From the IMG/VR virus record IMGVR_UViG_3300008952_003529: a stretch of 64,000 nucleotides of DNA; one strand, 5' to 3'. Shown here in pieces: positions 18,301-64,000 of this stretch. The DNA comes from a virus. Both the position numbers and the translations under genes were made by a program. Each line of letters opens with the position of its first letter. Within the stretch, counting starts at the first letter, position 1. The notes beneath the pieces are model-generated. The model saw only the letters and a program-made list of their open reading frames with translations, did not search any database and was not told the DNA's origin.

Positions 18301-18457
18301 TGAGTCATTCAAAGTTGTCATGGATGACACAAACAATAGCGCGCAAGATGTTGAAAGCAACAAGTTGAATGGTAGGATCGTTGTCGTACCCACAAGGGCG
18401 ATTGAGTTTATTGCGATAGATTTTATCATTACAAACAGTGGCGTAGACTTTGCGTGA
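15308..18457 (+). CDS. Contractile tail sheath protein 1 (gp18-like)
   Basis: N-terminal FRSPGFFEREID; C-terminal PWFAPAGFNRG, RINPI, VIFGQKT, ALDRVNVRRMM and VPTRAIEFIAIDF. Confidence 0.96.
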   Translation: MAEQTFRSPGFFEREIDASTRKTEITGVPAGIIGTAEKGPAFVPVTVGSFQDFVNRFGTIDPDRFGPYAVQAFLKNRTAATYMRVLGAGANETTSQITNTQNYGTVVNAGLVLSGNVSASTSNANNGVVQFLCARHDAAASEAVAMPEFTDNPSFNNADAMKIVRGVIFNATTARTQVIDLDETWTSTVDDECQIDSGGLFAVVISSSLGTTFANQEDNNGTVVPGVKIVSASLDPASPAYISNVLNTDPTKFVQEQHLLYLDFAVEDEIAPVATSAAGVALLSGSANFGKTLQSGAGNEFTMLFGRYDTRYTTPTSPQIISQPFGGTEYPLFRFESLSDGAYGNDKVKISIANLRASTNKNYRYGTFEVQVRRFDDTDLAPQILESYPECNLDPNSESFIGRKVGDYKTWYNFDAENDDERRIIVSGKYPNQSVYIRTVINEAVYRSEVPTDSLPFGFSGIPALKTSDSLTDNSLSRLEFGGVPYGNTGNTRLWGDCSADGLVMTGSIIPPLPMRFKVTRGAVSTTAFMSGWPGDDERVDGRFYWGVKFERCPKEDDVTNAILNQNISSAPNSTVAAYTKFQGISKLDALVSGSAVDAFNANKFTLAKVALAGTGSDTTAATLLSEVTASAKEHMLEAAYIRNGVPDSQTYVVEDPDGYGKRITFATLAQSSSIKFNRFTAYLKFTTPMYGGWDGLNILDKDMSLMNDRATSTDASGETGKASSEFSATTIGLASNPAGDGRLNNNIFAYREAARIMTDPMTVRNNILSIPGIRDSYVTDWAADRTKAYSMAIYLMDIPSWSENAGRLFGDENRTLIKSSSDSFPDVRETAEQFESRAIDNNYCATYFPDVYITDSNNQQAVLVPSSVAALAALGYNDAVAYPWFAPAGFNRGSLGMVTNTDARLTASDRDDLYDVRINPIANFPNGGFVIFGQKTMQLSQSALDRVNVRRMMLELKRQVVAVANKILFEPNNAATRGRFINLVTPLLAAIQAQQGIESFKVVMDDTNNSAQDVESNKLNGRIVVVPTRAIEFIAIDFIITNSGVDFA

Positions 18458-18490
18458 TATAGTTAAGAGAGAAACAGGAGATTTTTTGAA

Positions 18491-21400: not shown

Positions 21401-21565
21401 CAGCAAGGTCTAGACCGATTCAAGGTACAGATCGACACTACCACAACGACGCAAGCCGATGTGGAAAATAACATTGTCAGAGGTAAGATTTTCCTCCAGC
21501 CGACAAGGTCCGTAGAGTTTATATCTCTTGATTTTGTCGTAACCAACGCTGGAACCGAAATTTAA
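18491..21565 (+). CDS. Contractile tail sheath protein 2 (gp18-like paralog)
   Basis: N-terminal FKSPGVSTREID; C-terminal PWFAPAGFTRG, DINPI, VVFGQKT, ALDRVNVRRLL and QPTRSVEFISLDF. Confidence 0.96.
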   Translation: MAELTFKSPGVSTREIDLSGPTKAAPTGIPAGVIGTANQGRAFVPITMATFADFVAEFGNTDGEKFGPMAMRQWLNYARAGTYLRILGVGDGKKRNSNGTVTNAGFVVGAEQWRATGIVGDNAYAGSTTTNGGVLGRTWFLGCIMEESGSSTAFSSAGLQSVQPILRGVVMAPSGVVPALSASRSAISNNTPLGAPGANDYAAAGTFGAGATQDAGSTVGSVNLAGGRQEFVLLLNGHSHTDEYPTIITASFDPKAPNYLYNVLNTDSTKIQNAGHYLYAHWGIDPAIAYVTGSSLVDDDYAAITEGGTVKTEDVAFLLTSSISRNNNGDASVPNFEGFVDRFRTAYSPYIISQAYGGVNYNLFRIHALDDGAIGNTRVKISVENITKSTNTNNPYSAFDLLVRDFNDTDSEPIVIEKFSKLSLDPGSERYIARQVGNYHLYYDFDKRVGSQKLVLDGAYPNKSNYIRVETNKLLDNAQLPADVLPVGFRGPAHLITSGSSIFSVADSAVTDVMAGEVASQLVQLPIPYRLMVSKNKTPKKSLAPELYWGVQFSIQDSVDEPNRNIQTNNSIASYSTYFNTYSQNGQAAVVGNNQGVADASGTILDCDKFNNNKFSLENIQVVVTTDTTPRADSSQWAAAQYMRSGIASASIPDIDGTARTSGDSGGSRLLSVATDFGLTSTRRFLKFTTIVQNGFDGSNIFNKEKLAFSNIAVTKEMADVTAQGGVTGQVTAAYRKAMDVLKERSDVDIQLLAIPGQRNSAVTDYCMQAVEERFDAMYIMDLEGKDTYNEVISGSSQLASVTNTANSFAGRNLDNSFAAAYFPDVIMTDVGTSTNVQVPPSVAVLGAFALNDSVAYPWFAPAGFTRGALKNVLETQVKLSRSNLDALYDVDINPITAFPQTKGEVVVFGQKTLLAAQSALDRVNVRRLLIDVRRQVRAIGDTFLFEPNRESTLARFSAAVNPVLARIQAQQGLDRFKVQIDTTTTTQADVENNIVRGKIFLQPTRSVEFISLDFVVTNAGTEI

Positions 21566-45243: not shown

Positions 45244-45639
45244 ATGAGTTATTCAGGTAAAGTTATAGACCATTTTGAGAACCCAAAAAATGTAGGAAGC
45301 TTCGATCAGGATGACCCTAGTGTTGGTACTGGGATTGTAGGCGCTCCAGCTTGCGGTGATGTAATGAAGCTTCAACTTAAAATTAGCGACACCGGCATTA
45401 TCGAGGATGCCAAATTTAAAACTTTTGGTTGCGGTTCTGCAATTGCATCCACCTCGTTAATAACTGTATGGGTCAAAGGAAAAACGCTGGAAGAAGCCTC
45501 AGAGATAAAAAATACTGATGTTGCAAAAGAGCTTTGTTTACCACCAGTAAAGATCCACTGCTCTGTGTTGGCAGAAGACGCGATTAAAGCTGCAATAGAA
45601 GACTATAGGAGAAGAAGTGCACTGGACATCAAAAATTGA
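45244..45639 (+). CDS. iscU: Fe-S cluster scaffold IscU
   Basis: DHFENPKNVG, GAPACGDVMKL, FGCGSAIAS and LPPVKIHC: three Cys ligands plus the LPPVK HscA-binding motif. Confidence 0.96.
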   Translation: MSYSGKVIDHFENPKNVGSFDQDDPSVGTGIVGAPACGDVMKLQLKISDTGIIEDAKFKTFGCGSAIASTSLITVWVKGKTLEEASEIKNTDVAKELCLPPVKIHCSVLAEDAIKAAIEDYRRRSALDIKN

Positions 45640-46219
45640 TAATAAAATTGAAAAAGTTGAGCTAAGAAAAAGCCCGGTCATTGTAAGAGTTAATAAATTT
45701 GACGAAGAATCAGCAAAAAAGTTTAACGATGAAATGGCTTTAGCACATAACACTGGACAAGATGTGATTCCAGTTGTTATTGATTCGTACGGAGGACAAG
45801 TTTACAGTTTGATGGCGATGATAAGCGCAATAAAGAATGCTGAAATACCCGTCGCTACGATCGTCGAAGGAAAAGCGATGTCCTGTGGTGCGATTCTTTT
45901 TTCATTCGGTGAAGAGGGTCGCCGTTTTATGGACCCCAATGCAACAGTGATGATTCATGATGTGTCGTCAATGGACATGGGGAAAGTAGAAGAATTAAAG
46001 GCTGGCGCAAAAGAAGCAGATCGTCTAAACGGTATTGTATACAAGATGATGGCTCAAAATTGTGGCAAGAAAGACGATTATTTTATGAAGATTGTCGACA
46101 AGAAGAAACACGCAGACTGGTTTCTGGATGCTAAAGAAGCAAAGAAGCATGGGCTTGCAAATCACCTCCGTGTTCCAAAGCTTTCTATAACGGTCGAAGT
46201 TAATATCGAGATGGAGTAA
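45617..46219 (+). CDS. clpP: ClpP-like serine protease
   Basis: IDSYGGQV, catalytic Ser in KAMSCGA, His in VMIHDVS, and WFLDAKEAKKHGL. Confidence 0.85.
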   Translation: MHWTSKIDNKIEKVELRKSPVIVRVNKFDEESAKKFNDEMALAHNTGQDVIPVVIDSYGGQVYSLMAMISAIKNAEIPVATIVEGKAMSCGAILFSFGEEGRRFMDPNATVMIHDVSSMDMGKVEELKAGAKEADRLNGIVYKMMAQNCGKKDDYFMKIVDKKKHADWFLDAKEAKKHGLANHLRVPKLSITVEVNIEME

Positions 46220-47820: not shown

Positions 47821-48831
47821 ATGAAAGTAGCGCATATTGACTATATTTGGGTAGACGGGTTTGATGTACCATCAATTAGGTCAAAGACGAAGGTAGGTCC
47901 CATCACAACTAACGATGAGGGCCAATCCGCGATAGAAATAACACAGTGGAATTTTGATGGCTCATCGACCGGCCAGGCTTCGACGAGCGAGTCTGAAAGA
48001 CTTCTAACACCTGTTCGTCTTTACCAGGTGTCACCAAGCCAGTACATGGTACTTTGTGAGGTGGAGGACGTTGATGGAACAGCACATTCTACAAACCATA
48101 GAGCTGTTCTGCGAGAGTATCTTACGGAAAATCCGACCAAAAATCTTTGGCTTGGTTTCGAACAAGAATATTTTTTAACTGATAATAGAAGTAAGAATAT
48201 GTTTTGGGCGGGTGAAGTAGAGCCGCCAAACACACCCATGTATTATTGTTCTTCTGGTGGGGACAGAGTGATGAAACGAGGCTTAGTAAGAGCCCACGCT
48301 GATATTTGCTGGTCAATGGGAATTCAGGTTGTTGGATATAACGCTGAAGTCGCTCCAAGTCAATGGGAATTTCAATGTTTCGGTGAAGACACGCTAAAGG
48401 CATGTGATGATTTATGGGTTTCAAGATATATGTTGTCACTTCTCGCCGAGAACGATGGCGTTGGTGTCGATTGGTCCCCCAAGCCACATACAGGATGGAA
48501 CGGCTCAGGTTGTCATACTAATTTTTCAACCGAGGAGATGCGGACAGGTACGGACAACGAGAAGTTGTATAATAGCATTTTAGAAAAGATGTCCATGAAC
48601 CATACCTCAACGATATCAGAATATGGCGAAGGGAATAATGATAGATTAGTGGGAGCGTATGAGACATCTAGTTTCGAGAAGTTTTCGTACGGCGTCGCCG
48701 ACCGTAGTGCTTCTGTTAGGATTCCCACATCGACAGTCGACAACGAGTGGAAAGGGTATTTAGAGGACCGACGACCTTCTTCAAATTGTGATCCGTACCG
48801 AGTCGCAAACCAATTAATAAGATTTGTGTGA
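47821..48831 (+). CDS. glnII: Glutamine synthetase, type II
   Basis: DYIWVDG, RSKTK, WNFDGSSTGQA, GFEQEY, NAEVAPSQWEFQ, WNGSGCHTN, RSASVRIP and GYLEDRRPSSNCDPY. Confidence 0.93.
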   Translation: MKVAHIDYIWVDGFDVPSIRSKTKVGPITTNDEGQSAIEITQWNFDGSSTGQASTSESERLLTPVRLYQVSPSQYMVLCEVEDVDGTAHSTNHRAVLREYLTENPTKNLWLGFEQEYFLTDNRSKNMFWAGEVEPPNTPMYYCSSGGDRVMKRGLVRAHADICWSMGIQVVGYNAEVAPSQWEFQCFGEDTLKACDDLWVSRYMLSLLAENDGVGVDWSPKPHTGWNGSGCHTNFSTEEMRTGTDNEKLYNSILEKMSMNHTSTISEYGEGNNDRLVGAYETSSFEKFSYGVADRSASVRIPTSTVDNEWKGYLEDRRPSSNCDPYRVANQLIRFV

Positions 48832-48840
48832 GGGAATGCT

Positions 48841-50385
48841 GTGTCGTTAAAATTTACTGTTGATTTAACCGAAGAGCAGGCGTCTGTATTGTCTCTTGAT
48901 GTTATAACATTTTTAGACGCCTTATGTGAAGAGTTCAGTCTTACGATTGCTCATCTTCTGGATGAGCGTGGGGGATTTACACCTGGTTTTCTGGAAGAAA
49001 CGAAGTGGATACGAGAAAGCCAGTGGAAGATTGCGGATTTCTCAAAAGACCTCGAAGACAGACGTGTCGAAATTACTGGTCCTCCCGATCGAAAAATGAT
49101 AATCAACGCATTGAATTCCGGCGCGAATGTGTACATGGCAGACTTTGAGGACTCCAATTCTCCGACGTGGAGCAACTGTGTAAATGGCCAGATAAATTTG
49201 CGCGATGCGATTCATAACGAGATTGATTTTCATGATGAGAAAAGAGACAAAATGTACTCCCTCGGCTCCGAGCTAGCAGTGTTATTTGTTCGTCCCCGCG
49301 GACTTCATTTATCAGAGGGTCATGTGATTCATGATTTGTGGGATGCGCCAATTCCAGCAGCGCTCTTCGACTTTGGTGTTTACATTGCGAATAATATCAC
49401 CACCCTTGTGGAGACCGGCCGCAGTCCCTATTTTTATCTTCCCAAATTAGAGCACCACAATGAAGCTGCTCTTTGGAATAAGATTTTTTCATTTTCTGAA
49501 GAATATTTTGGCGTGAAGAATGGAGTTATTAAGGCAACTGTGTTGATTGAAACCCTTCCAGCGGCATTTCAAATGGACGAGATATTATACGAATTGCGAG
49601 AGCATTCAGTTGGGTTGAATTGCGGTCGGTGGGACTATATTTTTAGTTTCATAAAAACATTTCGAAATGACCCAAAGTATATTGTTCCTGATCGAGATGA
49701 AGTGGGTATGACGCAACATTTTATGCAGTCCTACTCGAGACTCTTAATACAAACATGTCACCGCCGGGGAGCGCATGCGATGGGCGGTATGGCTGCTCAG
49801 ATACCTATAAAGAACGACCCTGTAGCGAACTCAACCGCGATTAGAAAGGTAGAGCAAGACAAGATTCGGGAAGTAATGGATGGACATGACGGCACATGGG
49901 TAGCGCATCCAGGATTAGTGGCAATCGCAAAAAAAGTTTTCGATGAATATCTTATCACGCCCAACCAAATTAACAGACCTCTATCAAATATTGAGATATC
50001 AACTGAAGACTTGGTGGAAGTTCCTGTAGGATCTTTCACAGAGGAAATGTTAAGAAAAAATATAAAAATTGGATATGAATATATGAAGGCCTGGGTTGCG
50101 GGGTCTGGGTGCGTGCCTCTTAACAATTTAATGGAAGACGCCGCCACTGCTGAGATATCTCGTGCACAGACCTGGCAGTGGTTGCGGCATAACGTAATGC
50201 TTGATAACGGAGCTGTTGTGACGCAAGAGTATTTAGGCGCACTGTTTCAGGAAGAATTGATTGGTGAGTGCGGAGTAGCGTATGATCTATGGCACATATT
50301 GTGCTTTCAAAATAATATGGATGAGTTTTTAACACTACAAGCCTATAATAGCTTGGAATTAAATGGAAAATTGGAGATTCTCTGA
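48841..50385 (+). CDS. aceB: Malate synthase A
   Basis: [25 protein letters not shown] (catalytic Arg), [39 protein letters not shown] and [12 protein letters not shown] (catalytic Asp). Confidence 0.96.
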
Positions 50386-51623
50386 TGACAGCTAATAATC
50401 GATGGGACGGAATTACCCGCCCTTACTCCGCTGAGCAGGTAGATAAATTACGCGGCTCATTTCGTGAAAACTATGGTTTCGCAACACACGTTGCAACAAA
50501 GCTTTGGAACCAATTATGCTCTGAGCCCTACGTTCATGCAATGGGAGCTGTGACTGGAAATCAAGCGATGCAGATGGTCAAGGCCGGTACACCCTCGATT
50601 TATTGCTCTGGATGGCAAGTCGCCGCCGACGCGAATGATTCTCATTCCATGTACCCGGACCAAAGTTTATATGCGGTAAACAGTGTTCCAATGCTTATTG
50701 AAAAAATAAATAATGCTCTTCGTCGTGCCGACCAGGTCGAATGGATTGAAAATTGCGGGTCAATAAGAGACTGGTTCGCACCGATTGTTGCAGATGCAGA
50801 AGCAGGTTTCGGTGGAAACCTCAATGCGTTTGAATTGATGCAAGCAATGATTCGCGCCGGCGCAGCAGGGGTGCATTTTGAAGACCAGTTATCTTCGGCC
50901 AAGAAGTGTGGTCATTTAGGCGGAAAAGTTCTTGTACCGACCAGCGAGTTTGTTAAGAAATTGATAGCTGCTCGGCTAGCAGCGGATGTGATGGATGTAC
51001 CAACTATTTTAATTGCCCGTACCGATGCCGATTCAGCCCGTTTGATAACGTTAGATGTTGATCCTATAGACCAACAATTTATTACATCAAATGAACGAAC
51101 CGCAGAAGGATTTTATCATATCACTGGCGGGATAGATATGGCCATATCTCGAGGCTTGGCGTATGCGCCGTATGCCGACCTTCTTTGGTGCGAAACCAGC
51201 ACGCCTGATTTAGCAGAGGCGCAAAAATTCGCTGACGCTATACATGAAAAATTTCCCGGTAAGATGCTGGCGTATAATTGTTCACCTTCTTTTAACTGGC
51301 GCGCGAACCTCGATGATGAAACTATTGCAAAGTTTCAAAATTCTTTGGGGGAAATGGGTTACAAATTTCAGTTTATCACCTTGGCTGGTTTTCATTGCTT
51401 GAATTATTCAATGTTCAATTTAGCGCTGGATTACAATAAGCGAGATATGTCTGCATACGCCGAACTTCAAGCTGCTGAATTTGCCGCTGAAGATATTGGA
51501 TATACTGCTACAAAGCACCAACGTGAAGTAGGAACAGGATATTTCGACGCAGTTGCACAAACGATATCGTCAGATTCATCGACTTTAGCTTTAAAAGAGT
51601 CCACCGAAGCTGAGCAATTTTAG
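50385..51623 (+). CDS. aceA: Isocitrate lyase
   Basis: [33 protein letters not shown], active-site [35 protein letters not shown] and [12 protein letters not shown]. Confidence 0.97.
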
Positions 51624-53099: not shown

Positions 53100-53333
53100 A
53101 TGAACACTAATGAACTAAAAATGAATGATGATGCAATCAATCATCTCGCAAAGCTTCTGCAAATGGCTATTTTAACTGGTACTGATATTATGGACAATCT
53201 TCGTTCTGCTACATTTGTTGTACACAACGATGAGCTTCATATCCATCCAGATTATCATGAAGCGTTTGAGCAGAATATTCAAAATATGATGTCTGCCTTG
53301 GCAACTGAAGAAGAAGTTGAAGAAGTTGAGTGA
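53100..53333 (+). CDS. Hypothetical protein
   Basis: 77 aa with a GGAGG Shine-Dalgarno; TATAAT at 53071-53076 upstream. Confidence 0.75.
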   Translation: MNTNELKMNDDAINHLAKLLQMAILTGTDIMDNLRSATFVVHNDELHIHPDYHEAFEQNIQNMMSALATEEEVEEVE

Positions 53334-53700
53334 CAAATTAGACCAAATGTTCGCCCGGCGGACAGCGTTTATGACACGCTTAAAGGGAAAGAAGCCAGCT
53401 GAGTATCCAGATTGGCCGATCGATTTGTCAGATAAACGAAACCAACAGCACGTAAGAGATATGGCTCTAAGGGGTGTTGAGGAAATGTTCGAGGCATTGC
53501 AGCATCTCAAAAACTGGAAACCGCATAGAGACACAGAGGTTCATGAATTTGATAGAAGCGAATTTTTGGAGGAGGTTGTTGATGCGTTTAACTACTTTAT
53601 GTCAGTACTTGTCTTGACTGGAGTCGATGCTGAAGAGCTTTTTAGCGCGTACTGTGAAAAAGACCAGATAATTCATGATCGGTTGGATGAGGGTTATTGA
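53317..53700 (+). CDS. All-alpha NTP pyrophosphatase (dimeric dUTPase / T4 gp56 dCTPase family)
   Basis: Motifs EEMFEALQHLKNWKPH and FLEEVVDAFNYF; the start codon is uncertain (53317, 53326 or 53347). Confidence 0.8.
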   Translation: MKKLSDKLDQMFARRTAFMTRLKGKKPAEYPDWPIDLSDKRNQQHVRDMALRGVEEMFEALQHLKNWKPHRDTEVHEFDRSEFLEEVVDAFNYFMSVLVLTGVDAEELFSAYCEKDQIIHDRLDEGY

Positions 53701-54604: not shown

Positions 54605-55431
54605 CAAAGAAGATTAATCAAGATCGATTAAACGAAATTATAAAAGAAGAAGTTGTTAGTCATTTTTTGATGGAATCAAACTTACGAGTGGTGAGCACCT
54701 TAACGAACCGCGTTACGCGCGCGATTCTTTTCCTTGTAAAAGATGGTAAGACAACCACTGAGGAATATCAAGTCTTGGAAGCAGACGATTTAATCGACAC
54801 TGCCGGCCTACAAGATGAGACAGCTATCTACAGTCTTGATATAGATTTTCTCCCTGGAAAAATTAATCCAGACTTGGTCAGTGATGACTTCGGCGAAGAC
54901 GACACTTATTTAAGCGTTTCGTTATTTATTACTCCCTCTGATGCGATCCATATTTCTGGTGATAATATCAACCGTACGGGGAGCCCCGGAATTCATGTGG
55001 ATGTATTTGCTCCGAACCCGCTCCCTGATAAGAAGCGTGCTCTTCTTCGATCTGAGATTTCGAATACTGTCCGTCATGAGATTGAGCATATGCTTCAAGA
55101 GCTTCCAATGTATTATCGAGGGATGGAAGCTGCCGAGGGTGGAACATACGAATATGAAGACTTCGAAGTCATCGGTACGCCGGTGTCAGATCGCGCGAAA
55201 GATTACTATCTTGATGTAAAAGAGGTCTCTGCTCATATTATGGGATATGCGCATAATGCACAATCAACAAAGGCATTAGAAAGTGAAATACGTTCCATGC
55301 TTCAGAATTGGGCTAAGCAAGATTGGGAAAAAGATCGAGAGCGATATATCGCACCTGAAGATGTAGATATTATTGCAGGCGCCTGGATGGATTGGGCAAA
55401 AAAACACCTGAGAAAACAAAGATTTCGTTGA
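54601..55431 (+). CDS. Hypothetical zincin-like (HExxH) protein
   Basis: VRHEIEHMLQE, and a downstream YYLDVKEVSAH that could supply the third ligand. Confidence 0.55.
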   Translation: MTKKINQDRLNEIIKEEVVSHFLMESNLRVVSTLTNRVTRAILFLVKDGKTTTEEYQVLEADDLIDTAGLQDETAIYSLDIDFLPGKINPDLVSDDFGEDDTYLSVSLFITPSDAIHISGDNINRTGSPGIHVDVFAPNPLPDKKRALLRSEISNTVRHEIEHMLQELPMYYRGMEAAEGGTYEYEDFEVIGTPVSDRAKDYYLDVKEVSAHIMGYAHNAQSTKALESEIRSMLQNWAKQDWEKDRERYIAPEDVDIIAGAWMDWAKKHLRKQRFR

Positions 55432-55456
55432 AAAAGATTGCTAATTTCTCTATAAT
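55428..55456 (+). promoter_or_regulatory. sigma70-type promoter for dnaE
   Basis: TTGAAA (55428-55433), 17-nt spacer, TATAAT (55451-55456); GGAGA Shine-Dalgarno before ATG 55475. Confidence 0.8.
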
Positions 55457-55474: not shown

Positions 55475-58400
55475 ATGCGAAAGACGAAACTAATCCCACC
55501 CAGTAAATTTATCTCCCTTCATTCACATGACGGGTTTTCTACTTTTGACGGTTTGGGGTACCCACAAGAACACATCGATTTTGTTATTGAGAATGGCATG
55601 GATGGATGGTGTCTTACTAATCATGGTCATATGAATTCTTTTGGTCATGCATTTCTCCATGCAGAAAAAGTTCAAAAGCGCGGTGGTTCGTTTAAGTTCG
55701 TTCCAGGCTGTGAAATGTATGTGCATCCTGACCTTGAAGTATGGCAGCTCGATTACGAAATTAGGCAAGCAGCAAAGAAGGGTGACAAGGAGGCTATGTT
55801 CGCTCTTAGAGAGCGTCGTGAAGCAATAACAACTCCTCTTACTGCGATCATTGATGGCGATGATGAGATTGTTGATATAGGCAAAGAAGACGCTGGCCTC
55901 ACTGTAGAAAATGAAGAGGAAACCAAGTCTGGGAAATTTTATGATCCAGTAAAGCGTCGTCATCATCTTGTGGTTTTGCCAAAGACGAGTGAAGGTCTCC
56001 AGCGCTTGTTTCATCTCGTAAGTAGAGGTTACAGAGAGGGCTTCTATAGGTTCCCCCGTGTAGACTATAGGATGTTAAGGGAAGCCGCCCAGGGTGGCCA
56101 TCTGATGATTTCTACAGCATGTATCGGCGGTCCTATTGCTTATGAGGTGTTTCGACATGCTCAACAGATAGAATTTGATGATTTAAAGCATACTTTACTT
56201 GACGATCCTTCATTTCACCGTAATGTGATGACAGGAGTTGGGAACGCGTACCAAGGTCTTGTTGATGCGGTTGGAATGGATGATGTACATCTAGAGCTTC
56301 AATTTAACAAGCTTCCTGCACAACACCTTGTTAATCGTGCGATTATTGAATTTGCAAACAACAATGGTCTAAATGATAAGCTTGTCGTTACAACGGATTC
56401 ACATTATGCTCGTCCTGAGCATTGGCGGGAGCGTGAACTTTACAAGAAGTTGGGGTGGTTAAATTATCGTGAATTCGACCCATCTAAGTTGCCACAATCA
56501 AGAGATGACTTGAAATGTGAACTCTATCCCAAGAATGCACATCAGGTTTGGGACACATATCTTGAGTCAGCCGATGGCATGGATTTTTATGATGATCAAA
56601 TAGTAAAAGATGCGATCGAACGGCCCCATGGGATAGTACATGAGGGTATTCAAGACATTGCCCCTGACCGCACTATGAAGCTCCCATCTTACGTTGTCCC
56701 CGAAGGACAAACTGATGATAAGGCGCTTCTTGAGGCTTGTAAAAAGGGGCTTATTGAACGCGGCTTTGCAAGCGACCCGAAGTATATTGAGCGCTTGAAG
56801 TATGAGTTGAAAGTTATCAAAGACAAGAAGTTTTCTCGATACTTTTTGACCATGACGGCAATCATTAACATCGCAAGAAAAGCAATGTTGGTCGGTCCTG
56901 GCCGAGGCTCCGCCGCCGGCAGTCTTGTTGCGTATGTGCTTCGACTAACAGACGTAGATCCTTTTGAGTACGACTTAATGTTCGAGAGATTTTTGAACCC
57001 TTCTCGAAAAGGCGCCCCTGATATTGATACCGACGTCGGTGACCGCGATCTTTTGATTCAATTAATGAAAGATGAATGGGGTGATGAAAATATCATTCCT
57101 ATTTCGAACTACAACACCTTTAAGCTAAAATCACTTGTTAAGGATATTTCTCGTTTTTATGGAATTCCATTTCACGAAGTAAATAAGGCATTGTCCACCG
57201 TCGATCAAGACGTACGGCGAGCTGTTTTTAAGCCGGGTACTGATAAGAACCTGTTTGTCCTTTTGTACGAAGACGCGCTAGCACATTCGTCGAAGTTTCG
57301 GACATTCATTGAAAAACATCCAGAAGTAGCAGAGCCTATCCAGGTTTTGTTTAAGCAGAACAAGGCCTTGGGTCGACATGCTGGTGGGTGTATTGTAGCA
57401 GAGAATATTTCCGAAAGAATGCCACTAATCAAAGCCCGAGGAGAGCTTCAAACTCCATGGGCCGAAGGGATGAACTACAAACATCTTGAAACATTCGGGT
57501 GGATTAAGTTTGATCTTCTCGGCCTTGAGACACTACGGATTATCCAAAGAACGATTGAGCTTATCCTTCAACGAAAGGAGGGTATCGAAGAGCCTACATT
57601 CGAGCAGGTTTCGGAGTGGTTTGAGACTCACATGAATCCCAAGATTTTAGATTTGAATGACCAGCATGTTTATGAGCATGTTTATGCTGAAGGTCGGTTC
57701 CCGGGTGTGTTTCAGTTGGCTAATCGAGGCTCTAGAAATCTCTTTAAGAAAGCCAAGCCAAAGAGCATTGTTGATATTGCAACACTGACGTCGATTTATC
57801 GTCCTGGTCCACTAACTGCAAAAGTTGATAGACACTACATTAAGGCAAAGAACAATCCGGGCAGTGTGGATTATGGTCATCCGCTGATTAAAGAAGTTCT
57901 TGAAGAAACATATGGGATGATTGTTTTTCAAGAGCAAATCATGCAATTGTGCTCTGTGGTCGCTGGTTTCCCAGAAGAAGAAACCGACACTGTGCGTCGT
58001 AGTATTATGAAGAGAAAGGCATCGGAAGCAGAGGAGTCTTTGGCTCAGGCCAGAGCGATTAAGGAACAGTTCGTTGCAGGTGCTGTAGGGAATGGTGTCG
58101 ATCGACAGTTGGCAGACGACCTTTACGAGAAGATTTTGTACTTCTCTGGCTATGGATTCAATAAGGCACATGCTGTTTCATATGCTATTGACTCTTACTA
58201 CTGTGCTTGGCTGTTGACGTATTACGAGGAAGAGTGGCTTTGCGCTTATCTAGAAGCTATGTCTGGTAATGATAAAAAGCGAGCTAAGGCTTTTGCTGAA
58301 GTTAAGGCTCTCGGTTATCGGGTTGCTCCAATTGATATCAATTATGCAACCAAGAAGTGGACAATTCTTGAGGGGAAAAAGTTCATGCCATCTCTTCTTT

Positions 58401-59083
58401 CATGTAAGGGCATCGGTGCAGCAGCTATCGACGAGCTTGTAGCTAATCGTCCTTACCAGAAAATTGATGATTTGCTCTGGACAGAAGACGGAAAATGGAA
58501 GCACTCTAAATTTAATAAACGCGCAATGGAGGCGCTGATTAACATTCGTGCATTCGAATCAATGAACCTTATCGGCAGCGAGTTTGAGTCTTATAAACAT
58601 ATGCATGAAGTCTTGATTGGTAAGAATAACGATATTAAAAAATGGACTAAAAAGGATGCTGATCGCGGAAGAAGAAATTATCGAGAAGCATTGTTAGAAA
58701 CGCAAGGTTGCGGAGACTGGTCTCGCAGAGAGCGTGTCGAGAACAGCGTAAAGCACTTCGGCTCGTTTAACGCATCCACCCTAATTTCAGACGAAGTACA
58801 AGATAAGTTAACAGAAATGAATATCCATCCTATCGATGCGATTAATGGGCATGATTTGTATTGGTTTCTCGTGTCTGAGGTGAAGCCAAAGATGACAAAG
58901 AATAATCGCCCATATTTGCTCGTTACAGCCACAGCATTGTCAGGTCAAACATACCGAATGTTTTGCTGGGGATGGGATGGAGAGACAGAGCTACCACTTT
59001 ACAGCCTTTGTGTCGCAGAAGTAAAAAAGAACGACTTTGGGTATCAAACGTCAATGAAAAAAGTAAAATTGCTACAAATGTGA
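55475..59083 (+). CDS. dnaE: DNA polymerase III alpha subunit (family C, DnaE-type)
   Basis: PHP domain SLHSHDGFSTFDG, TNHGH, GCEMY and TTDSHY; GPGRGSAAGSLVAY; catalytic PDIDTD; GRHAGG; KFDLLGL; GVFQL; YGFNKAHAVSY; no intein seen. Confidence 0.96.
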   Translation: MRKTKLIPPSKFISLHSHDGFSTFDGLGYPQEHIDFVIENGMDGWCLTNHGHMNSFGHAFLHAEKVQKRGGSFKFVPGCEMYVHPDLEVWQLDYEIRQAAKKGDKEAMFALRERREAITTPLTAIIDGDDEIVDIGKEDAGLTVENEEETKSGKFYDPVKRRHHLVVLPKTSEGLQRLFHLVSRGYREGFYRFPRVDYRMLREAAQGGHLMISTACIGGPIAYEVFRHAQQIEFDDLKHTLLDDPSFHRNVMTGVGNAYQGLVDAVGMDDVHLELQFNKLPAQHLVNRAIIEFANNNGLNDKLVVTTDSHYARPEHWRERELYKKLGWLNYREFDPSKLPQSRDDLKCELYPKNAHQVWDTYLESADGMDFYDDQIVKDAIERPHGIVHEGIQDIAPDRTMKLPSYVVPEGQTDDKALLEACKKGLIERGFASDPKYIERLKYELKVIKDKKFSRYFLTMTAIINIARKAMLVGPGRGSAAGSLVAYVLRLTDVDPFEYDLMFERFLNPSRKGAPDIDTDVGDRDLLIQLMKDEWGDENIIPISNYNTFKLKSLVKDISRFYGIPFHEVNKALSTVDQDVRRAVFKPGTDKNLFVLLYEDALAHSSKFRTFIEKHPEVAEPIQVLFKQNKALGRHAGGCIVAENISERMPLIKARGELQTPWAEGMNYKHLETFGWIKFDLLGLETLRIIQRTIELILQRKEGIEEPTFEQVSEWFETHMNPKILDLNDQHVYEHVYAEGRFPGVFQLANRGSRNLFKKAKPKSIVDIATLTSIYRPGPLTAKVDRHYIKAKNNPGSVDYGHPLIKEVLEETYGMIVFQEQIMQLCSVVAGFPEEETDTVRRSIMKRKASEAEESLAQARAIKEQFVAGAVGNGVDRQLADDLYEKILYFSGYGFNKAHAVSYAIDSYYCAWLLTYYEEEWLCAYLEAMSGNDKKRAKAFAEVKALGYRVAPIDINYATKKWTILEGKKFMPSLLSCKGIGAAAIDELVANRPYQKIDDLLWTEDGKWKHSKFNKRAMEALINIRAFESMNLIGSEFESYKHMHEVLIGKNNDIKKWTKKDADRGRRNYREALLETQGCGDWSRRERVENSVKHFGSFNASTLISDEVQDKLTEMNIHPIDAINGHDLYWFLVSEVKPKMTKNNRPYLLVTATALSGQTYRMFCWGWDGETELPLYSLCVAEVKKNDFGYQTSMKKVKLLQM

Positions 59084-59117: not shown

Positions 59118-60146
59118 TTGTACGCAGGAAGTTTCGAGAGTTTTACTGAATGTTATATTGAGTTGATTAAAGAGGTCTATAACAATCCGACCTATATGTC
59201 AGCTCCTCGTGGGCAAAAGATTAAAGAAAAACTGGGTGTTTCATTTACAATCGAGAACCCCAGAGATCGAATTCCGTATGTTGCGGGTCGAAAATTTAGT
59301 ATTTCTTATATGGTCGCTGAGCTATTGTGGTACCTTTCAGCCAATAATAAGACTGAGTGGATTTCAAGGTATTCGGCTTTCTGGAAAGATATTAGTGATG
59401 ATGGTGTAACTGCAAACTCTGCTTATGGTGCCCGCTTGTTTGAGAAGCACCCCAAGATTGCCGATGGCCGTTATAGACAGTGGCAATATGTTGTAAATGA
59501 GCTTAATCGTGATAGAGATTCTAGAAGAGCCGTGATGCACCTACGTGTTCCAGCTGATAGTATCGATGCTCGGCTTGATGTTCCCTGTACTTTATCACTT
59601 CAATTTTTTATTCGTGATGAAAAGCTCCACATGATTGTGAATATGCGCAGTTCTGACCTTATTTTTGGGATTGCTTATGATATACCTGCATTTACACTTT
59701 TCCAGGAAATTTTAGCTGAGCAACTGGAAGTCGGCCTCGGTTCTTATACACACATGAGTAATTCTCTTCATATTTACGAGCGGCATTTCGAGATGGTCGA
59801 AGGTATTTTGGCCAGAGAAAATCGTACTCTTAAACTTCACGAAACTCATGGTCCAATGCCTCCACTCGGATCATTGAATTGTAAGCAGTGGGTTCTTGAA
59901 GGGTGGATTGAGACACTAATGAAAGCTGAAGATCATATTAGCAGCTTAACTAGCCCGATAGAAATTCAGCAAGCATTTAATACTCATTTCATATCGACAG
60001 AAGAAGCTGACAACGTTTGGTCAGACTGGGCCAGGGTCTTGGCCGCACACAGATTAAGAAAGCTTGGCTTTACTGAAGATGCGAACCGTGTTCAAAACCA
60101 GACGGCATTTTCTGGTTATTCATTCAACATTAAAAAAGAGGGATAG
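59118..60146 (+). CDS. Thymidylate-synthase-fold dCMP-modifying enzyme (dCMP hydroxymethylase-like)
   Basis: AELLWY, NSAYG, DSRRAVM, catalytic Cys in DVPCTLSLQF, NMRSSDLIFG and SLHIYERHF. GIAYDIPAF has Asp where dUMP-specific ThyA has Asn (GLPFNIASY). TTG start. Confidence 0.85.
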   Translation: MYAGSFESFTECYIELIKEVYNNPTYMSAPRGQKIKEKLGVSFTIENPRDRIPYVAGRKFSISYMVAELLWYLSANNKTEWISRYSAFWKDISDDGVTANSAYGARLFEKHPKIADGRYRQWQYVVNELNRDRDSRRAVMHLRVPADSIDARLDVPCTLSLQFFIRDEKLHMIVNMRSSDLIFGIAYDIPAFTLFQEILAEQLEVGLGSYTHMSNSLHIYERHFEMVEGILARENRTLKLHETHGPMPPLGSLNCKQWVLEGWIETLMKAEDHISSLTSPIEIQQAFNTHFISTEEADNVWSDWARVLAAHRLRKLGFTEDANRVQNQTAFSGYSFNIKKEG

Positions 60147-60148
60147 AA

Positions 60149-61273
60149 GTGACAAATTACGATTATCTTATTGTCGGCGCCGGACTTTTTGGTGCAACTT
60201 TTGCGAGGGAAATGACAGATGCTGGAAAAAAGTGCCTTGTTATTGACAAGCGTCCGCATATTGGCGGAAACGTTTATTCAGAAAATAGGAATGGAGTTGA
60301 TGTGCATGTATACGGAGCTCATATTTTTCATACTAGTAGTGATCGTATTTGGGAGTATGTAAATCGATTTGCAACATTCAACAATTACGTCAATAAACCA
60401 AAGGTCAGGTTTGGCGATAGGATTTTTTCTTTTCCTATTAATTTAATGACGCTACACCAGCTTTGGGGTGTGATGACACCTGCGGAAGCCGAGGCAAAGC
60501 TTAAGGAAGTTCGTATTCCATGCGAGAATCCAGATAATTTAGAGGACTGGATCTTATCTCAAGTTGGTCGTGAAGTATATGAGACATTCATTCGTGGATA
60601 CACAATGAAGCAATGGCAAAGGGATCCTCGAGAGCTACCTGCATCAATCATTAAGCGACTTCCCATTCGTATGGTTTTCGAGGAGAATTATTTCTTTGAC
60701 AAGTATCAAGGGATTCCTGTCAAAGGGTATACAGAGATGGTCAATAATATGCTTGAGGATATTACGGTCATGACCGGCATGGATTACTTCGCACAACGTG
60801 AACACTTCAATTCTTTAGCGGAAACAGTCGTATTTACTGGGAAGGTGGATGAGTATTTTGATTTTTGCCATGGTGAACTAGAGTATAGAACTCTCCGATT
60901 TGAGCATGAAGAGCTCGAAGGGGATTTCCAGGGAAATGCAGTTGTGAACTATACCTCACCAGACATTCCCTTCACTCGAATCGTTGAGCACAAACATTTT
61001 CTACCGTCTACCGCAAGCAAGTTGCCTAATACTATTGTTACACGAGAATATTCTGACGAGTATAAGCGAGGAAAGACGCCGTATTATCCCATTAACAATG
61101 ATCGAAATAACATGATGTATAAGAAATATGCAGCGATGGCCGCCGCGGAAGATGATGTAATTTTTGGTGGTAGGTTGGCAGAGTACAAATATTATGATAT
61201 GCATCAAGTTATTGGTTCTGCGCTTGTAAAAGCCAAGCGAGAGCTCAATAATCAATCAATGGAGAAAGAATGA
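60149..61273 (+). CDS. glf: UDP-galactopyranose mutase
   Basis: IVGAGLFGA (FAD binding), HIGGN, YGAHIFHT, GYTMKQW, YQGIP, LEYRTL, FTRIVEHKHF, PYYPIN and GGRLAEYKYYDMHQV. Confidence 0.96.
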   Translation: MTNYDYLIVGAGLFGATFAREMTDAGKKCLVIDKRPHIGGNVYSENRNGVDVHVYGAHIFHTSSDRIWEYVNRFATFNNYVNKPKVRFGDRIFSFPINLMTLHQLWGVMTPAEAEAKLKEVRIPCENPDNLEDWILSQVGREVYETFIRGYTMKQWQRDPRELPASIIKRLPIRMVFEENYFFDKYQGIPVKGYTEMVNNMLEDITVMTGMDYFAQREHFNSLAETVVFTGKVDEYFDFCHGELEYRTLRFEHEELEGDFQGNAVVNYTSPDIPFTRIVEHKHFLPSTASKLPNTIVTREYSDEYKRGKTPYYPINNDRNNMMYKKYAAMAAAEDDVIFGGRLAEYKYYDMHQVIGSALVKAKRELNNQSMEKE

Positions 61274-61476
61274 GCCGTATTAATAGAGGCCGCCGCCGCA
61301 AAGAAGAACTTCGTGAAGTAGTAGAAGAAAATACAAAGGAACGTGCTAAACGATCGCCACAGCAGCAATTGGATTTGCTTGATGAAAGACTTGGCATCGG
61401 AATCGGAGCAGTTCGCGAACGAAAGCACTTACAGAAACTTTTAGCAAATAGTAAAAATAAAAAGGACAAAAAATGA
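61270..61476 (+). CDS. Small basic hypothetical protein
   Basis: 68 aa with ATGA overlaps on both sides; RSPQQQLDLLDERLGIGIGAVRER. Confidence 0.75.
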   Translation: MSRINRGRRRKEELREVVEENTKERAKRSPQQQLDLLDERLGIGIGAVRERKHLQKLLANSKNKKDKK

Positions 61477-62528
61477 GAGTACTTTACAGCTTTTGGGGAT
61501 TTATTACCCCTCTTGAGAAAAACAGCATTGTCGACACACCTGATGGTGAACGAGGAAATCGAGTTGACTGGGTAAACGAACTATTAAAGCGCGGTCATAC
61601 ACCAATTCAGCTTCAAAAGATGCGTGATGACGAGCAGTATCTGGGGGTTGAGTATGACGACTCTGGTTTCCCTGATGGCGATATTCTTTATGTAGAGTGG
61701 CGCTGGCCGACCTGGAAGAATTCCGGTCAGAATCCTGTTGAGTCTGATTATAATCGCCAATGCGAAGTACTTGACTATTACCATGAACAAGGAATTCCCA
61801 TTGTGATAGTTGACGGTGATTTGAAGATGACGCCTGAGGAAGAGTTGCGCTGGCCAGATGCCATCTTAGCAGATGCATGTGTCGACCCCCAGCACCAAAC
61901 TCGTAAGCGTATTACAATTCCCTGGTGCAATTATATGAAGCGATACTTCGATCCAGTAGAATATTCGTACAATTATACATACGTCGGTAACAATTACGAA
62001 CGTGAATATCAATTCGGGAAATACTATATTGACCCAAGCCGATATCTGAGAGAGGAGGGAATCCAGACTACGATTTATGGAAATTGGCTTCAGAAATCGC
62101 CTGAAAGAGTTGATCCGGGAGAGCTCTTAGCCAAGACGCCTTGCGTTGCGTTTGGACCTCGCTTGGCATACAAAGATATTTTTAGTGTATTGAACTCTTC
62201 TATCACGGTAACTCACATTACAAAGGATGCGTATACTCCATTTGGCAACATCACAGGAAGATTTTTTGAGGCGATCAAAAGTAACGTTCCTGCGTTGATT
62301 CCAATTGAGTTTCGGCATGCATTACCTGTCGGGCTAAAGGGTGGCGCTCTTGTGGTTGAAACGGCAGATGATGTGATCGATAAGGTGAAGTGGATTTCAA
62401 CGTTAAGTGCCACAGAGCGAAAAGCGCTAGTCGACGAGCAAGAAGAAGCTCTACGTACTGTTATCGACCCTCGCCCTGAATATCGCACTGATCTTCTTGA
62501 ACATATTGTGGGAGATTATCAAGCATGA
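61473..62528 (+). CDS. GT-B glycosyltransferase resembling T4 DNA beta-glucosyltransferase
   Basis: 351 aa. IVIVDGDLK, YTYVGNNYER, TTIYGNW and NSSITVTHITKDAYTPFGNITGRFFEAIKSNVPALIPIEF parallel the T4 BGT segments as I recall them (YLFTDIRL, VIYGG, IEFFGN, NFITLRVWETMASDAVMLIDEEF). Confidence 0.72.
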   Translation: MRVLYSFWGFITPLEKNSIVDTPDGERGNRVDWVNELLKRGHTPIQLQKMRDDEQYLGVEYDDSGFPDGDILYVEWRWPTWKNSGQNPVESDYNRQCEVLDYYHEQGIPIVIVDGDLKMTPEEELRWPDAILADACVDPQHQTRKRITIPWCNYMKRYFDPVEYSYNYTYVGNNYEREYQFGKYYIDPSRYLREEGIQTTIYGNWLQKSPERVDPGELLAKTPCVAFGPRLAYKDIFSVLNSSITVTHITKDAYTPFGNITGRFFEAIKSNVPALIPIEFRHALPVGLKGGALVVETADDVIDKVKWISTLSATERKALVDEQEEALRTVIDPRPEYRTDLLEHIVGDYQA

Positions 62529-63088
62529 AAGTTGCATTTATTGGTCCCGATATGACGGGGAAATCGAACATCGCTGCTGAGCTTTCGAAACAAACGGGCG
62601 TTCCAGTTTTTAAGAATTCTGGAGAGTGGAAAACGCAGTTAAACAGCTCGGAGTACTTTCTTAACCTACTGAGATTTGGTGGCCCATTTTTGATGGATTT
62701 CATCCGGCAAACAAACGTATCAGTCATCTTAGACCGTTTTTATCCTTGTGAGATGGTATATTCGCAAGCTTTCGGTCGAGAAACGGACGACACCGCATTA
62801 GCGTGGATGGACAAGAATTTCGCAGAGGTAGGCGGAAAGTTCATTATTTGCGTTCGGAATGACTATTCAGATTTGATTGATGATCAATATCCTGAAGACC
62901 TGCCGCCAAATGTATTGGGTGCTTTAACTCTTCATTATCGAAAGTTTGCTAAATGGACAGGGTGTGAATGCTTGATTTTGGAAACAGATGATATGGACCT
63001 GAACAATCAGGTAAAAAAGATTAAAATGTTCTTAGGAATTAAGAATAGGGAAGATATGCAAGCGGAGGATTTTTGTAGTCATGCGTAA
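62525..63088 (+). CDS. dNMP kinase (thymidylate-kinase-like P-loop)
   Basis: P-loop GPDMTGKS and the TMPK-type ILDRFYPCEMVYS motif. Confidence 0.85.
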   Translation: MKVAFIGPDMTGKSNIAAELSKQTGVPVFKNSGEWKTQLNSSEYFLNLLRFGGPFLMDFIRQTNVSVILDRFYPCEMVYSQAFGRETDDTALAWMDKNFAEVGGKFIICVRNDYSDLIDDQYPEDLPPNVLGALTLHYRKFAKWTGCECLILETDDMDLNNQVKKIKMFLGIKNREDMQAEDFCSHA

Positions 63089-64000
63089 AGCTTTAGTTAC
63101 TGGCTGTTGTGGTTTTATTGGTGGACATCTTACTAGAATGTTAGTGAAAGATGGGTGGAATGTTGTTGGCGTCGACGATCTTTCAAATGGTGATCCAGAC
63201 GTCCTTCATGATATTGATATTCGATGTGTCCCACCGGCACTTCTCCCTGCCTATAACGGCGCGGAAGATGTAGACAAGACACTTATTATTACTGGTGATT
63301 TTGCAAATGAACATATTCTCATGAGAGCCGACCGCGGCGATTTTGATGTTATTTTTCATCTTGCCGCGAATCCACGGGTAGAGTATTCTGTAAAGAACCC
63401 TGCATCGACAACTCATACAAACGTCCAGAAGACGATTGAGCTAATGACTGCGGCCGTTGGAAAGATTGATCGATTTGTATTTGCTTCTTCTTCCGCAGTG
63501 TATGGTAACGGGGTTTCATTACCAACCAAAGAGTCTGAGTCAACAAATCCTCAATCTCCATACGCTCTACAGAAACTTGTAGTTGAGCAATTCGGTGAAA
63601 TGTACAGTGAACTCTATGGCTTAGATTTTGTTGCATTGAGGTTTTTCAATGTATACGGCCCCGGACAGCTTGGGAGTTCTCCGTATTCTACTGCAATCGC
63701 CGCGTGGTGTGATAAGCTGAAGGCTGGAAAGCCCCTCCGAAGTGACGGGGACGGGGAGCAAAGTAGAGATATGGTTTATGTTGAGGATGTCTCCAGGGCC
63801 CTTATTACGTGTGCAGAACGAAACAGCTCCTTTGGATTTGAAGTATATAACGTAGGCGCAGGTCAATCATTGACAAATAATCAAATTTTGAATGGCCTTC
63901 GTGAATATTTTCCATCAATGGAAATCACGCATGCGCCTGAACGAACAGGAGACGTCAAGCATACTTTGGCTAACGTTAATAAGATTGAAACTGAAGTTCT
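63081..64000 (+). CDS. NAD-dependent UDP-sugar 4-epimerase (extended SDR, GalE/WbpP-like); partial, cut by the window end
   Basis: Missing from the ORF track. My translation from ATG 63081: ALVTGCCGFIGGHL, GVDDLSNG, VIFHLAA, FVFASSSAVYG, SPYALQK (YxxxK), LRFFNVYGP and QSRDMVYVEDV; open to the window end. Confidence 0.9.
   Translation, partial: MRKALVTGCCGFIGGHLTRMLVKDGWNVVGVDDLSNGDPDVLHDIDIRCVPPALLPAYNGAEDVDKTLIITGDFANEHILMRADRGDFDVIFHLAANPRVEYSVKNPASTTHTNVQKTIELMTAAVGKIDRFVFASSSAVYGNGVSLPTKESESTNPQSPYALQKLVVEQFGEMYSELYGLDFVALRFFNVYGPGQLGSSPYSTAIAAWCDKLKAGKPLRSDGDGEQSRDMVYVEDVSRALITCAERNSSFGFEVYNVGAGQSLTNNQILNGLREYFPSMEITHAPERTGDVKHTLANVNKIETEV

Follow-up and report, generated by a model that had tools for sequence, protein, structure and literature searches.

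A glycosyltransferase related to T4 BGT in a probable cytosine hypermodification module of an uncultured marine myovirus

RESULTS

A translationally coupled gene block contains the glycosyltransferase

We analyzed a 64,000-nucleotide stretch of viral DNA (the window; IMG/VR record IMGVR_UViG_3300008952_003529), focusing on a gene that encodes a GT-B glycosyltransferase, here called GT (Table 1). A sequence-only reading of the same DNA had proposed that GT is a DNA glycosyltransferase resembling the T4 DNA beta-glucosyltransferase (BGT) and paired with a furanose donor. The window spans positions 78268 to 142267 of a 178-kb viral contig (completeness, ~44%), which carries the gene set of a large myovirus (terminase, portal, major head protein, a T4-type baseplate protein, and two sheath paralogs of ~1,000 amino acids [aa]) and a phage-encoded replication set (DnaE, DnaB, RecA, a gp32-like protein, FEN, RNR, and ThyX). 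The source phage is a large uncultured marine myovirus with DnaE-type replication. The genes of the GT block are translationally coupled, with overlaps of 4 to 8 nucleotides (nt), and their surroundings consist of replication and nucleotide-metabolism genes. The GT open reading frame (ORF) proposed earlier was borne out, as was the match of its length to that of T4 BGT. Glf, which had been noted nearby, ends 200 nt upstream of GT, with just one 68-aa ORF between them.

Table 1. Genes of the block containing GT, in window coordinates
Feature	Coordinates	Strand	Basis
DnaE-type DNA polymerase III alpha, first gene of block	55475..59083	+	Pfam, NCBIfam
342-aa thymidylate synthase (TS) homolog, predicted (d)CMP C5-hydroxymethylase yielding 5-hydroxymethyl-dCMP	59118..60146	+	MilA best solved relative; residue signature
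Glf, UDP-galactopyranose mutase yielding UDP-galactofuranose	60149..61273	+	TIGR00031, 367 bits (cutoff 304); PF03275, 7.6e-78
68-aa very basic Lys/Arg-rich ORF, uncertain gene	61270..61476	+	4-nt overlaps with both Glf and GT
GT, GT-B glycosyltransferase, 351 aa, ATG start	61473..62528	+	Fold; BGT-related C-domain; candidate catalytic D114/D116; UDP-binding R177, R263, E266
187-aa P-loop nucleotide kinase (YorR/dNK-like), predicted to phosphorylate modified dCMP	62525..63088	+	AAA_28, 8.5e-5; phrog_761 "thymidylate kinase," 5e-5
UDP-hexose/UDP-HexNAc 4-epimerase (GalE-like, SDR)	63081..64000, continues past window end	+	Pfam Epimerase, 3.4e-50

GT is linked to TS-like, kinase, and DnaE genes across related loci

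The strongest evidence for the role of GT is its gene context. We compared 51 related loci (47 from IMG/VR and four other metagenomic contigs) in which the GT homolog is 38 to 86% identical to that of the window. The kinase gene adjoins GT in all 51 loci, and DnaE lies within 10 kb of GT in 49; in one of the two exceptions, a 257-kb relative, DnaE is broken by an intein and other insertions (L004:1-7659; Intein_splicing matches on the fragments). A long TS-like gene is linked to GT in 47 of the loci, three of the four absences being truncated loci, and most loci also carry an ortholog of the GalE-like epimerase. In the window operon, 1.3 kb separates GT from the TS-like gene upstream of it. 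Even at only 29% identity, one GT relative adjoins a TS-like gene of the long form together with DnaE, DnaB, and primase genes; another distant relative has a methyltransferase and a GT4 enzyme as its neighbors. Comparable arrangements are present in other phages: gene 42 and b-gt of T4 are adjacent and close to the polymerase gene, and RB69 (p048 / p047:046 / p045) and RL38J1 (gp216 / gp215 / gp214) share the TS-like/GT/kinase order seen here.

The TS homologs carry a hydroxymethylase signature

The best solved relative of the window TS homolog is the MilA CMP hydroxymethylase (E = 4.9e-42, versus 2e-21 for true TS). According to a published rule based on residues numbered as in E. coli ThyA, N177D indicates a cytosine substrate and L143D/E a non-methyl product, and D169N marks flavin-dependent 5-hydroxy-dCMP synthases, being carried by all tested synthases of the 5-hydroxycytosine (5hoC) type (PMC13326640). 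In an alignment that took in T4 gp42, RB69 gp48, RL38J1 gp216, and RL38J1 ThyA, the window protein exhibited C146, an Asp at C-3 (L143D), S168, D169, and N177D, which is the gp42/MilA pattern. All 47 linked TS-like genes read RS-S-D, the gp42-type signature, whereas RB69 gp48 and RL38J1 gp216 read RS-Q-N (Q168-N169), the 5hoC synthase pattern. Because the TS homologs carry the gp42/MilA signature, 5-hydroxymethylcytosine (5hmC) is the base predicted by this rule. In one relative (L042; GT, 59% identical), the TS homolog is a short T4 gp42-like form (255 aa, RS-N-D, 32% identical to that of the window), which suggests that the hydroxymethylase was swapped within the module, replacing the long MilA-like form.

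The base could alternatively be 5hoC, as in RB69, DLP3, and RL38J1, with the sugar ether-linked directly to C5. The TS-like/GT/kinase order is that of the published 5hoC systems, the presence of a phage Glf recalls RL38J1, in which the base-proximal sugar is galactose, and the 5hoC synthase of RL38J1 likewise has MilA as its best structural match. Nevertheless, the tested 5hoC synthases are D169N, whereas every one of the 47 linked TS-like genes keeps Asp169 in common with T4 gp42 and MilA; moreover, the window TS homolog is only 22% identical to RL38J1 gp216, and the glycosyltransferases are not detectably homologous. We therefore regard 5hoC as very unlikely.

We also considered GT as an ortholog of the RL38J1 "galactosyltransferase 1" and rejected this candidate for lack of detectable homology. 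Comparison of GT with the first glycosyltransferases of RL38J1 and RB69 by hhalign gave probabilities of 0.1 to 0.8% (single-sequence templates, which very remote homology could escape), and a search of the RL38J1 genome with the GT family hidden Markov model (HMM) found nothing. Similarly, the RL38J1 and RB69 kinases exhibited no detectable homology to the window kinase.

T4 BGT is the nearest characterized relative of GT

GT belongs to a large family of uncharacterized proteins. A word-indexed search returned 194 relatives and an exhaustive search returned 247 cluster representatives; every relative found was metagenomic, Tara samples included, and annotated as "hypothetical." The sole match of GT in a Pfam scan (E ≤ 0.01) was PF13524, at 19.3 bits and thus below the cutoff of 25. 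A phmmer search of the PDB yielded nothing at E ≤ 10, and tblastn and megablast searches of 50,697 phage records yielded zero matches.

An AlphaFold2 model built from 39 homologs (pLDDT, 93.4; pTM, 0.90) has the two-Rossmann GT-B fold. Structure comparison with BGT, AGT, and other enzymes, which the sequence-only reading had suggested as a check, was favorable in one respect and not in another. T4 BGT ranked second of 48,161 chains (VIA-align Z = 21.8, root mean square deviation of 3.8, 297 aligned residues), with the highest identity in the list of structure matches (15%) and Foldseek TM scores of 0.62/0.65. However, sucrose-phosphate synthase, PglA, and PimA, enzymes of the GT4 type, tie with BGT (within 1 Z unit), and AGT (Z = 20.3) and BshA are also within ~2 Z units. 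Because fold comparison alone does not discriminate among these enzymes, we do not rest the case on fold.

Three independent approaches, profile-profile comparison, structure, and language-model features, identify T4 BGT as the nearest characterized relative of GT. The GT family profile matched a profile of 26 BGT family members with 95.2% probability (E = 2.6e-8, 149 columns), and a wider profile that includes relatives of ~30% identity matched the BGT family with 98.5% probability (E = 1.7e-15, 168 columns), the alignment beginning at the phosphate loop (YVGNNYER versus IYGGSFRSGQRE). In single-sequence hhalign controls run under equal conditions, the GT family profile gave 76% for BGT, 9% for the phage's own CgeB-like glycosyltransferase, and at most 3% for each of T4 AGT, two GT1 enzymes, and the RL38J1 and RB69 glycosyltransferases. 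In the language-model search, PF09198 BGT clusters were the nearest named family beyond that of GT itself.

The aligned residues include most of the UDP-binding residues of BGT. We take the UDP-binding residues of BGT to be R191, R195, R269, and E272 and its catalytic base to be Asp100, which ends N-domain strand beta4. The alignment pairs G172, R177, Y254, R263, E266, and E279 of GT, all invariant in the family, with G188, R195, Y261, R269, E272, and E285 of BGT, respectively, so that three of the four UDP-binding residues are matched; R191 aligns with N173. The motifs on which the earlier comparison with BGT was based are present (IVIVDGD at residues 110 to 116; ITGRFFE at 260 to 266, followed by ALIPIEF), and the likeness of the R-x-x-E motif to that of BGT exceeds chance, as both profile alignments pair its Arg and Glu with R269 and E272. 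The alignments thus indicate that the GT C-domain is homologous to that of BGT over its whole length.

GT is nonetheless not a member of the BGT family proper: it is acidic, lacks detectable N-domain similarity to BGT, and does not match PF09198, which we take to be the Pfam family of T4 BGT (CAZy GT63). No match to PF09198 was found in GT or in 52 distant relatives, whereas all 47 true BGT homologs tested match it. PF13524 is matched by 34 of the 52 distant relatives, is flagged in many close ones, and is carried by BGT homologs themselves. The caveat that the motif also occurs in CgeB-like enzymes was therefore correct, the R-x-x-E region being the PF13524 domain, but it does not exclude kinship with BGT; the two descriptions concern one C-domain superfamily.

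For the catalytic base, the sequence-only reading had nominated an Asp at the end of an N-domain strand. An invariant Asp, D114, does end strand 110 to 113 in the model, but sequence does not support its equivalence to BGT D100, which in the global alignment falls opposite D68, within an N-domain part of low confidence. The order of helix (residues 92 to 106), strand, and Asp in the model, which is that of BGT, favors D114 as the candidate counterpart of D100. No variation at D114 or D116 was seen among 41 distinct family members, and relatives of ~30% identity still show at least 90% conservation at both positions.

A glycan island elsewhere on the contig and a possible glycan-directed role

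The contig also has a separate glycan island (contig ~9.9 to 18.5 kb, L069; 20.2 to 30.2 kb, L070), ~50 kb upstream of the window, that encodes four GT2 enzymes, a GT6, a CgeB-like PF13524 glycosyltransferase, two GT1 enzymes, and a GDP-mannose 4,6-dehydratase, along with two more SDR epimerases, a PfkB kinase, a split transketolase, and a Zn-dehydrogenase. Virion or host-surface glycosylation is a possible function of this island. Within it (L070:6832-10171), a PD-(D/E)XK nuclease gene is followed by genes for the two GT1-family enzymes, which also match PF20706 (GT4 in conflict systems); by analogy with the dispersed extra DNA glycosyltransferases of RL38J1, these two could be further DNA-acting enzymes.

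The island bears on the possibility that GT is an ordinary glycosyltransferase of the CgeB/PF13524 type whose acceptor is a glycan, lipid, protein, or small molecule, in which case Glf and GalE would serve polysaccharide or virion glycosylation and the adjacent hydroxymethylase would be incidental. Consistent with such a role are the acidity of GT, its single Pfam match (PF13524), the GT4-type polysaccharide and small-molecule enzymes that equal BGT in fold score, and the distant relative found beside a methyltransferase and a GT4 enzyme. Against it stand the linkage to TS-like, kinase, and DnaE genes, which extends across 51 loci and reaches a relative of 29% identity, with the glycan genes lying ~50 kb away, and the far better profile match to BGT than to the phage's own CgeB-like enzyme. 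In addition, no flippase, polymerase, lipid-carrier, or membrane genes adjoin GT. We consider a glycan-directed role quite unlikely.

GT is probably the sugar-adding enzyme of a pre-replicative module

Taken together, the gene context, the TS signature, and the kinship with BGT make it probable that GT adds the sugar in a pre-replicative module for cytosine hypermodification, and a role in 5hmC glycosylation is well supported. In the pathway that we propose, the TS homolog would convert dCMP into 5-hydroxymethyl-dCMP, which the neighboring small kinase would phosphorylate en route to the triphosphate, and the phage DnaE replisome would build the modified nucleotide into DNA. GT would then use a UDP-sugar to attach a hexose at the 5-hydroxymethyl oxygen, with D114 or D116 of the N-domain acting as the base and R177, R263, and E266 holding UDP, as in T4 BGT. 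The epimerase would provide a galacto-configured UDP-sugar, which in Glf-bearing phages, this one included, may first be converted to UDP-galactofuranose (UDP-Galf). The resulting DNA would be shielded from host nucleases.

Several observations weigh against this assignment. GT is named by no curated family (PF13524 is below threshold, and PF09198, PHROG, and NCBIfam gave no match), and by fold score GT4 enzymes that act on small molecules or glycolipids are not distinguishable from BGT. The N-domain lacks reliable sequence similarity to BGT, alignment and model topology point to different Asp residues as the D100 counterpart, and the D169 rule that distinguishes 5hmC from 5hoC is empirical. 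Transfer of the first sugar onto 5hoC DNA could not be shown for RB69 and DLP3 (PMC13326640). Finally, GT is acidic, with an isoelectric point (pI) of 4.87 and a net charge of −17 (N-domain, −11), versus a pI of 9.05 for BGT, and FEN, PolA, and MT-A70 of the same phage are basic. The sequence-only reading had expected a basic DNA-binding cleft, and these values, which describe bulk charge only, run counter to it. However, bulk acidity is not decisive, because the proteins of this phage are generally acidic (median pI, 5.5). The GT family ranges from pI 4.9 to 7.8, and the proposed first glycosyltransferases of RB69 and RL38J1 are likewise acidic (pI 5.0 to 5.6).

DNA is the more likely acceptor

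Whether the first sugar is added to a mononucleotide or to DNA was left undecided by Lee et al. 2026 for the published systems (PMC13326640), and the adjacency of GT and kinase in all 51 loci fits either route. If GT acted on free 5hm-dCMP before replication, the kinase would phosphorylate the glycosylated nucleotide and DnaE would incorporate it. The overlapping reading frames of GT and kinase agree with this order of events, as does an overall acidic protein whose acceptor domain retains invariant Arg residues, a combination that would be appropriate to a small, phosphate-bearing acceptor. Single first glycosyltransferases were also inactive on 5hoC DNA (PMC13326640), and RB69 has a separate gp1-type dNMP kinase in addition to the one adjacent to its glycosyltransferase. 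However, the window kinase is fully explained as an hm-dCMP kinase, which it may simply be; its best PDB match is YorR (2axp/3kb2; E = 0.05, a weak match), and no second PF02223 or PF01712 kinase was found on the ~44% complete contig. A nucleotide acceptor would further require a polymerase that accepts a bulky hexosyl-dCTP. To our knowledge, every characterized phage hmC glycosyltransferase acts on DNA. We therefore judge a nucleotide acceptor unlikely; 5hmC in DNA is the more likely acceptor of GT by analogy with BGT, its nearest relative, which works on DNA.

The donor is probably galacto-configured and possibly a furanose

The nearest solved relatives of the epimerase are the UDP-GlcNAc/UDP-Glc 4-epimerases 6dnt, PelX, WbgU, and WbpP, and a galacto-configured UDP-hexose or UDP-HexNAc is likely to be the intermediate shared across the family. 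Two lineages couple this enzyme to Glf. In the clade with GT identity of at least 74%, Glf lies inside the operon throughout; in locus L057, whose GT is only 39% identical and falls on a separate branch of the tree, Glf has entered the operon independently, the overlapping genes being ordered SDR-Glf-kinase-GT-epimerase-TS-like. RL38J1 provides a precedent: this phage has a glf gene of its own, galactose is the sugar that adjoins the base, and UDP-Galf has been proposed as the donor (PMC13326640).

Other results weigh against a furanose donor. Glf is missing from 32 of the 51 related loci, and the eight other glycosyltransferases of the glycan island could be rival consumers of UDP-Gal or UDP-Galf. 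A search for donor-switch residues found 51 GT residues, including every motif residue, to be invariant across Glf-plus and Glf-minus loci; just five GT columns are specific to the clade, none at invariant or motif positions, and L057 shares none of them. No residue of GT tracks Glf, and therefore the sequence gives no donor-switch support. On balance, UDP-Galf is a plausible donor of the window GT whose prospects fall short of even. We tentatively suggest that GT of this clade may move galactofuranose from UDP-Galf to 5hmC, yielding galactofuranosyl-5hmC DNA, and that the Glf-less relatives may produce galactopyranosyl-5hmC. In a less conventional variant, the galactofuranose would be added to the mononucleotide before replication.

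Further genes of the block and the window

The 68-aa ORF between Glf and GT has no homolog in the 51 related loci, and in close relatives Glf abuts GT directly; it is either a young gene or a noncoding insertion. A promoter-like site lies ahead of DnaE at 55428 to 55456, matching 11 of 12 consensus positions (a consensus match only), and the scan for promoters and terminators was overall at chance level.

On the contig, the entire epimerase is 330 aa long (L002:1349-2338) and is followed by genes for a 146-aa cupin, a DHH phosphoesterase, an MT-A70 methyltransferase, and a dCMP deaminase. The cupin (L002:2331-2768), directly after the epimerase, was assigned by fold (pLDDT, 91; Foldseek matches to vicilins, quercetinase, OxdC, and KdgF). 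It is kept in related loci down to ~37% identity, its canonical metal-binding His residues are not invariant, and it may tailor the sugar. The MT-A70 family DNA adenine methyltransferase (L002:3529-4206) is part of the same gene run, and adenine methylation may accompany cytosine hypermodification in this phage. A dCTPase of the T4 gp56 type was also sought. A 127-aa ORF at 53317 to 53697 of the window is a possible dCTPase/dUTPase, an activity that full replacement of cytosine would require, with a weak match to dUTPase_2 (all-alpha NTP pyrophosphatase) and no PDB match.

Elsewhere in the window, malate synthase (48841 to 50385) and isocitrate lyase (50385 to 51623) genes form a complete glyoxylate shunt (48841 to 51623) next to ThyX. 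Close by are a glutamine-synthetase-like gene (47821 to 48831) and genes for NifU (45244 to 45639) and ClpP (45617 to 46219). The two adjacent tail-sheath paralogs (15308 to 21565; ~1,050 and ~1,025 aa) match phrog_23 and are far above typical sheath length.

DISCUSSION

Glycosylated cytosines are a main means by which phages escape restriction enzymes and CRISPR nucleases. We know of only a few such chemistries: glucosyl- and gentiobiosyl-5hmC, arabinosyl-5hoC, and the galactosyl-glucosyl-5hoC of RL38J1. The description of GT as a BGT-like DNA glycosyltransferase with a furanose donor is partly supported: BGT is the closest characterized relative and a probable cytosine modification module is the setting, whereas UDP-Galf is no more than a plausible donor.

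The resemblance of GT to T4 BGT comprises length, GT-B fold, a homologous C-domain that keeps R195, R269, and E272, and a hydroxymethylase neighbor near a DNA polymerase gene. Unlike BGT, GT does not match PF09198, has an N-domain that cannot be aligned by sequence, carries N173 in place of R191, and is acidic. It is paired with a 4-epimerase and sometimes with Glf, such that its donor is probably not UDP-glucose, and its source is not a T-even phage but a marine DnaE-type myovirus.

With the clusters of RB69, DLP3, and RL38J1, the window shares the triad of TS-like enzyme, first glycosyltransferase, and YorR-like kinase, the published kinases also matching YorR. The first glycosyltransferases of these clusters have the same top structural neighbor as GT, 6kih. 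The TS homologs of these three phages carry D169N and make 5hoC, whereas that of the window keeps D169. In RL38J1, moreover, Glf lies ~60 kb from the glycosyltransferase gene, whereas in the window it is in the operon.

Two other groups of enzymes invite comparison. A 2023 preprint described BGT-like GT-B enzymes in metaviromes, with TS homologs on ~28% of the GT-B contigs (bioRxiv 10.1101/2023.12.21.572611). These share with GT the BGT-like architecture and an origin in uncultured phages; the characterized ones, however, act after TET/5mYOX oxidation of 5-methylcytosine. CgeB/YkvP-like glycosyltransferases (PF13524) have the same R-x-x-E motif in the C-domain, but their context is spore coat or polysaccharide synthesis, whereas that of GT is nucleotide metabolism. 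The BGT-like GT-B class and the use of UDP-Galf had thus been anticipated, by the preprint and, for RL38J1, by the 2026 paper, respectively. What is new is a large unnamed family of BGT-related glycosyltransferases that is linked to a hydroxymethylase instead of a hydroxylase, to a 4-epimerase, and, in two lineages, also to Glf, with a marine myovirus of the DnaE type as the background.

Through GT, marine phages probably place a galacto-type sugar on the cytosines of their DNA. The family, with hundreds of metagenomic members, would add a BGT-related enzyme that probably transfers a galacto-configured sugar to 5hmC in abundant marine phages. The kinase that always adjoins GT bears on the question raised in 2026 of whether the first sugar goes onto DNA or onto a nucleotide, and such glycosyltransferases are candidate tools for selective labeling of 5hmC. 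If the proposed furanose donor is correct, galactofuranosyl-5hmC would be a base not yet described, carrying a furanose hexose on hmC and made by an unnamed BGT-related family of marine phages. The Glf-plus and Glf-minus relatives of GT constitute a natural pair in which to study the evolution of donor choice.

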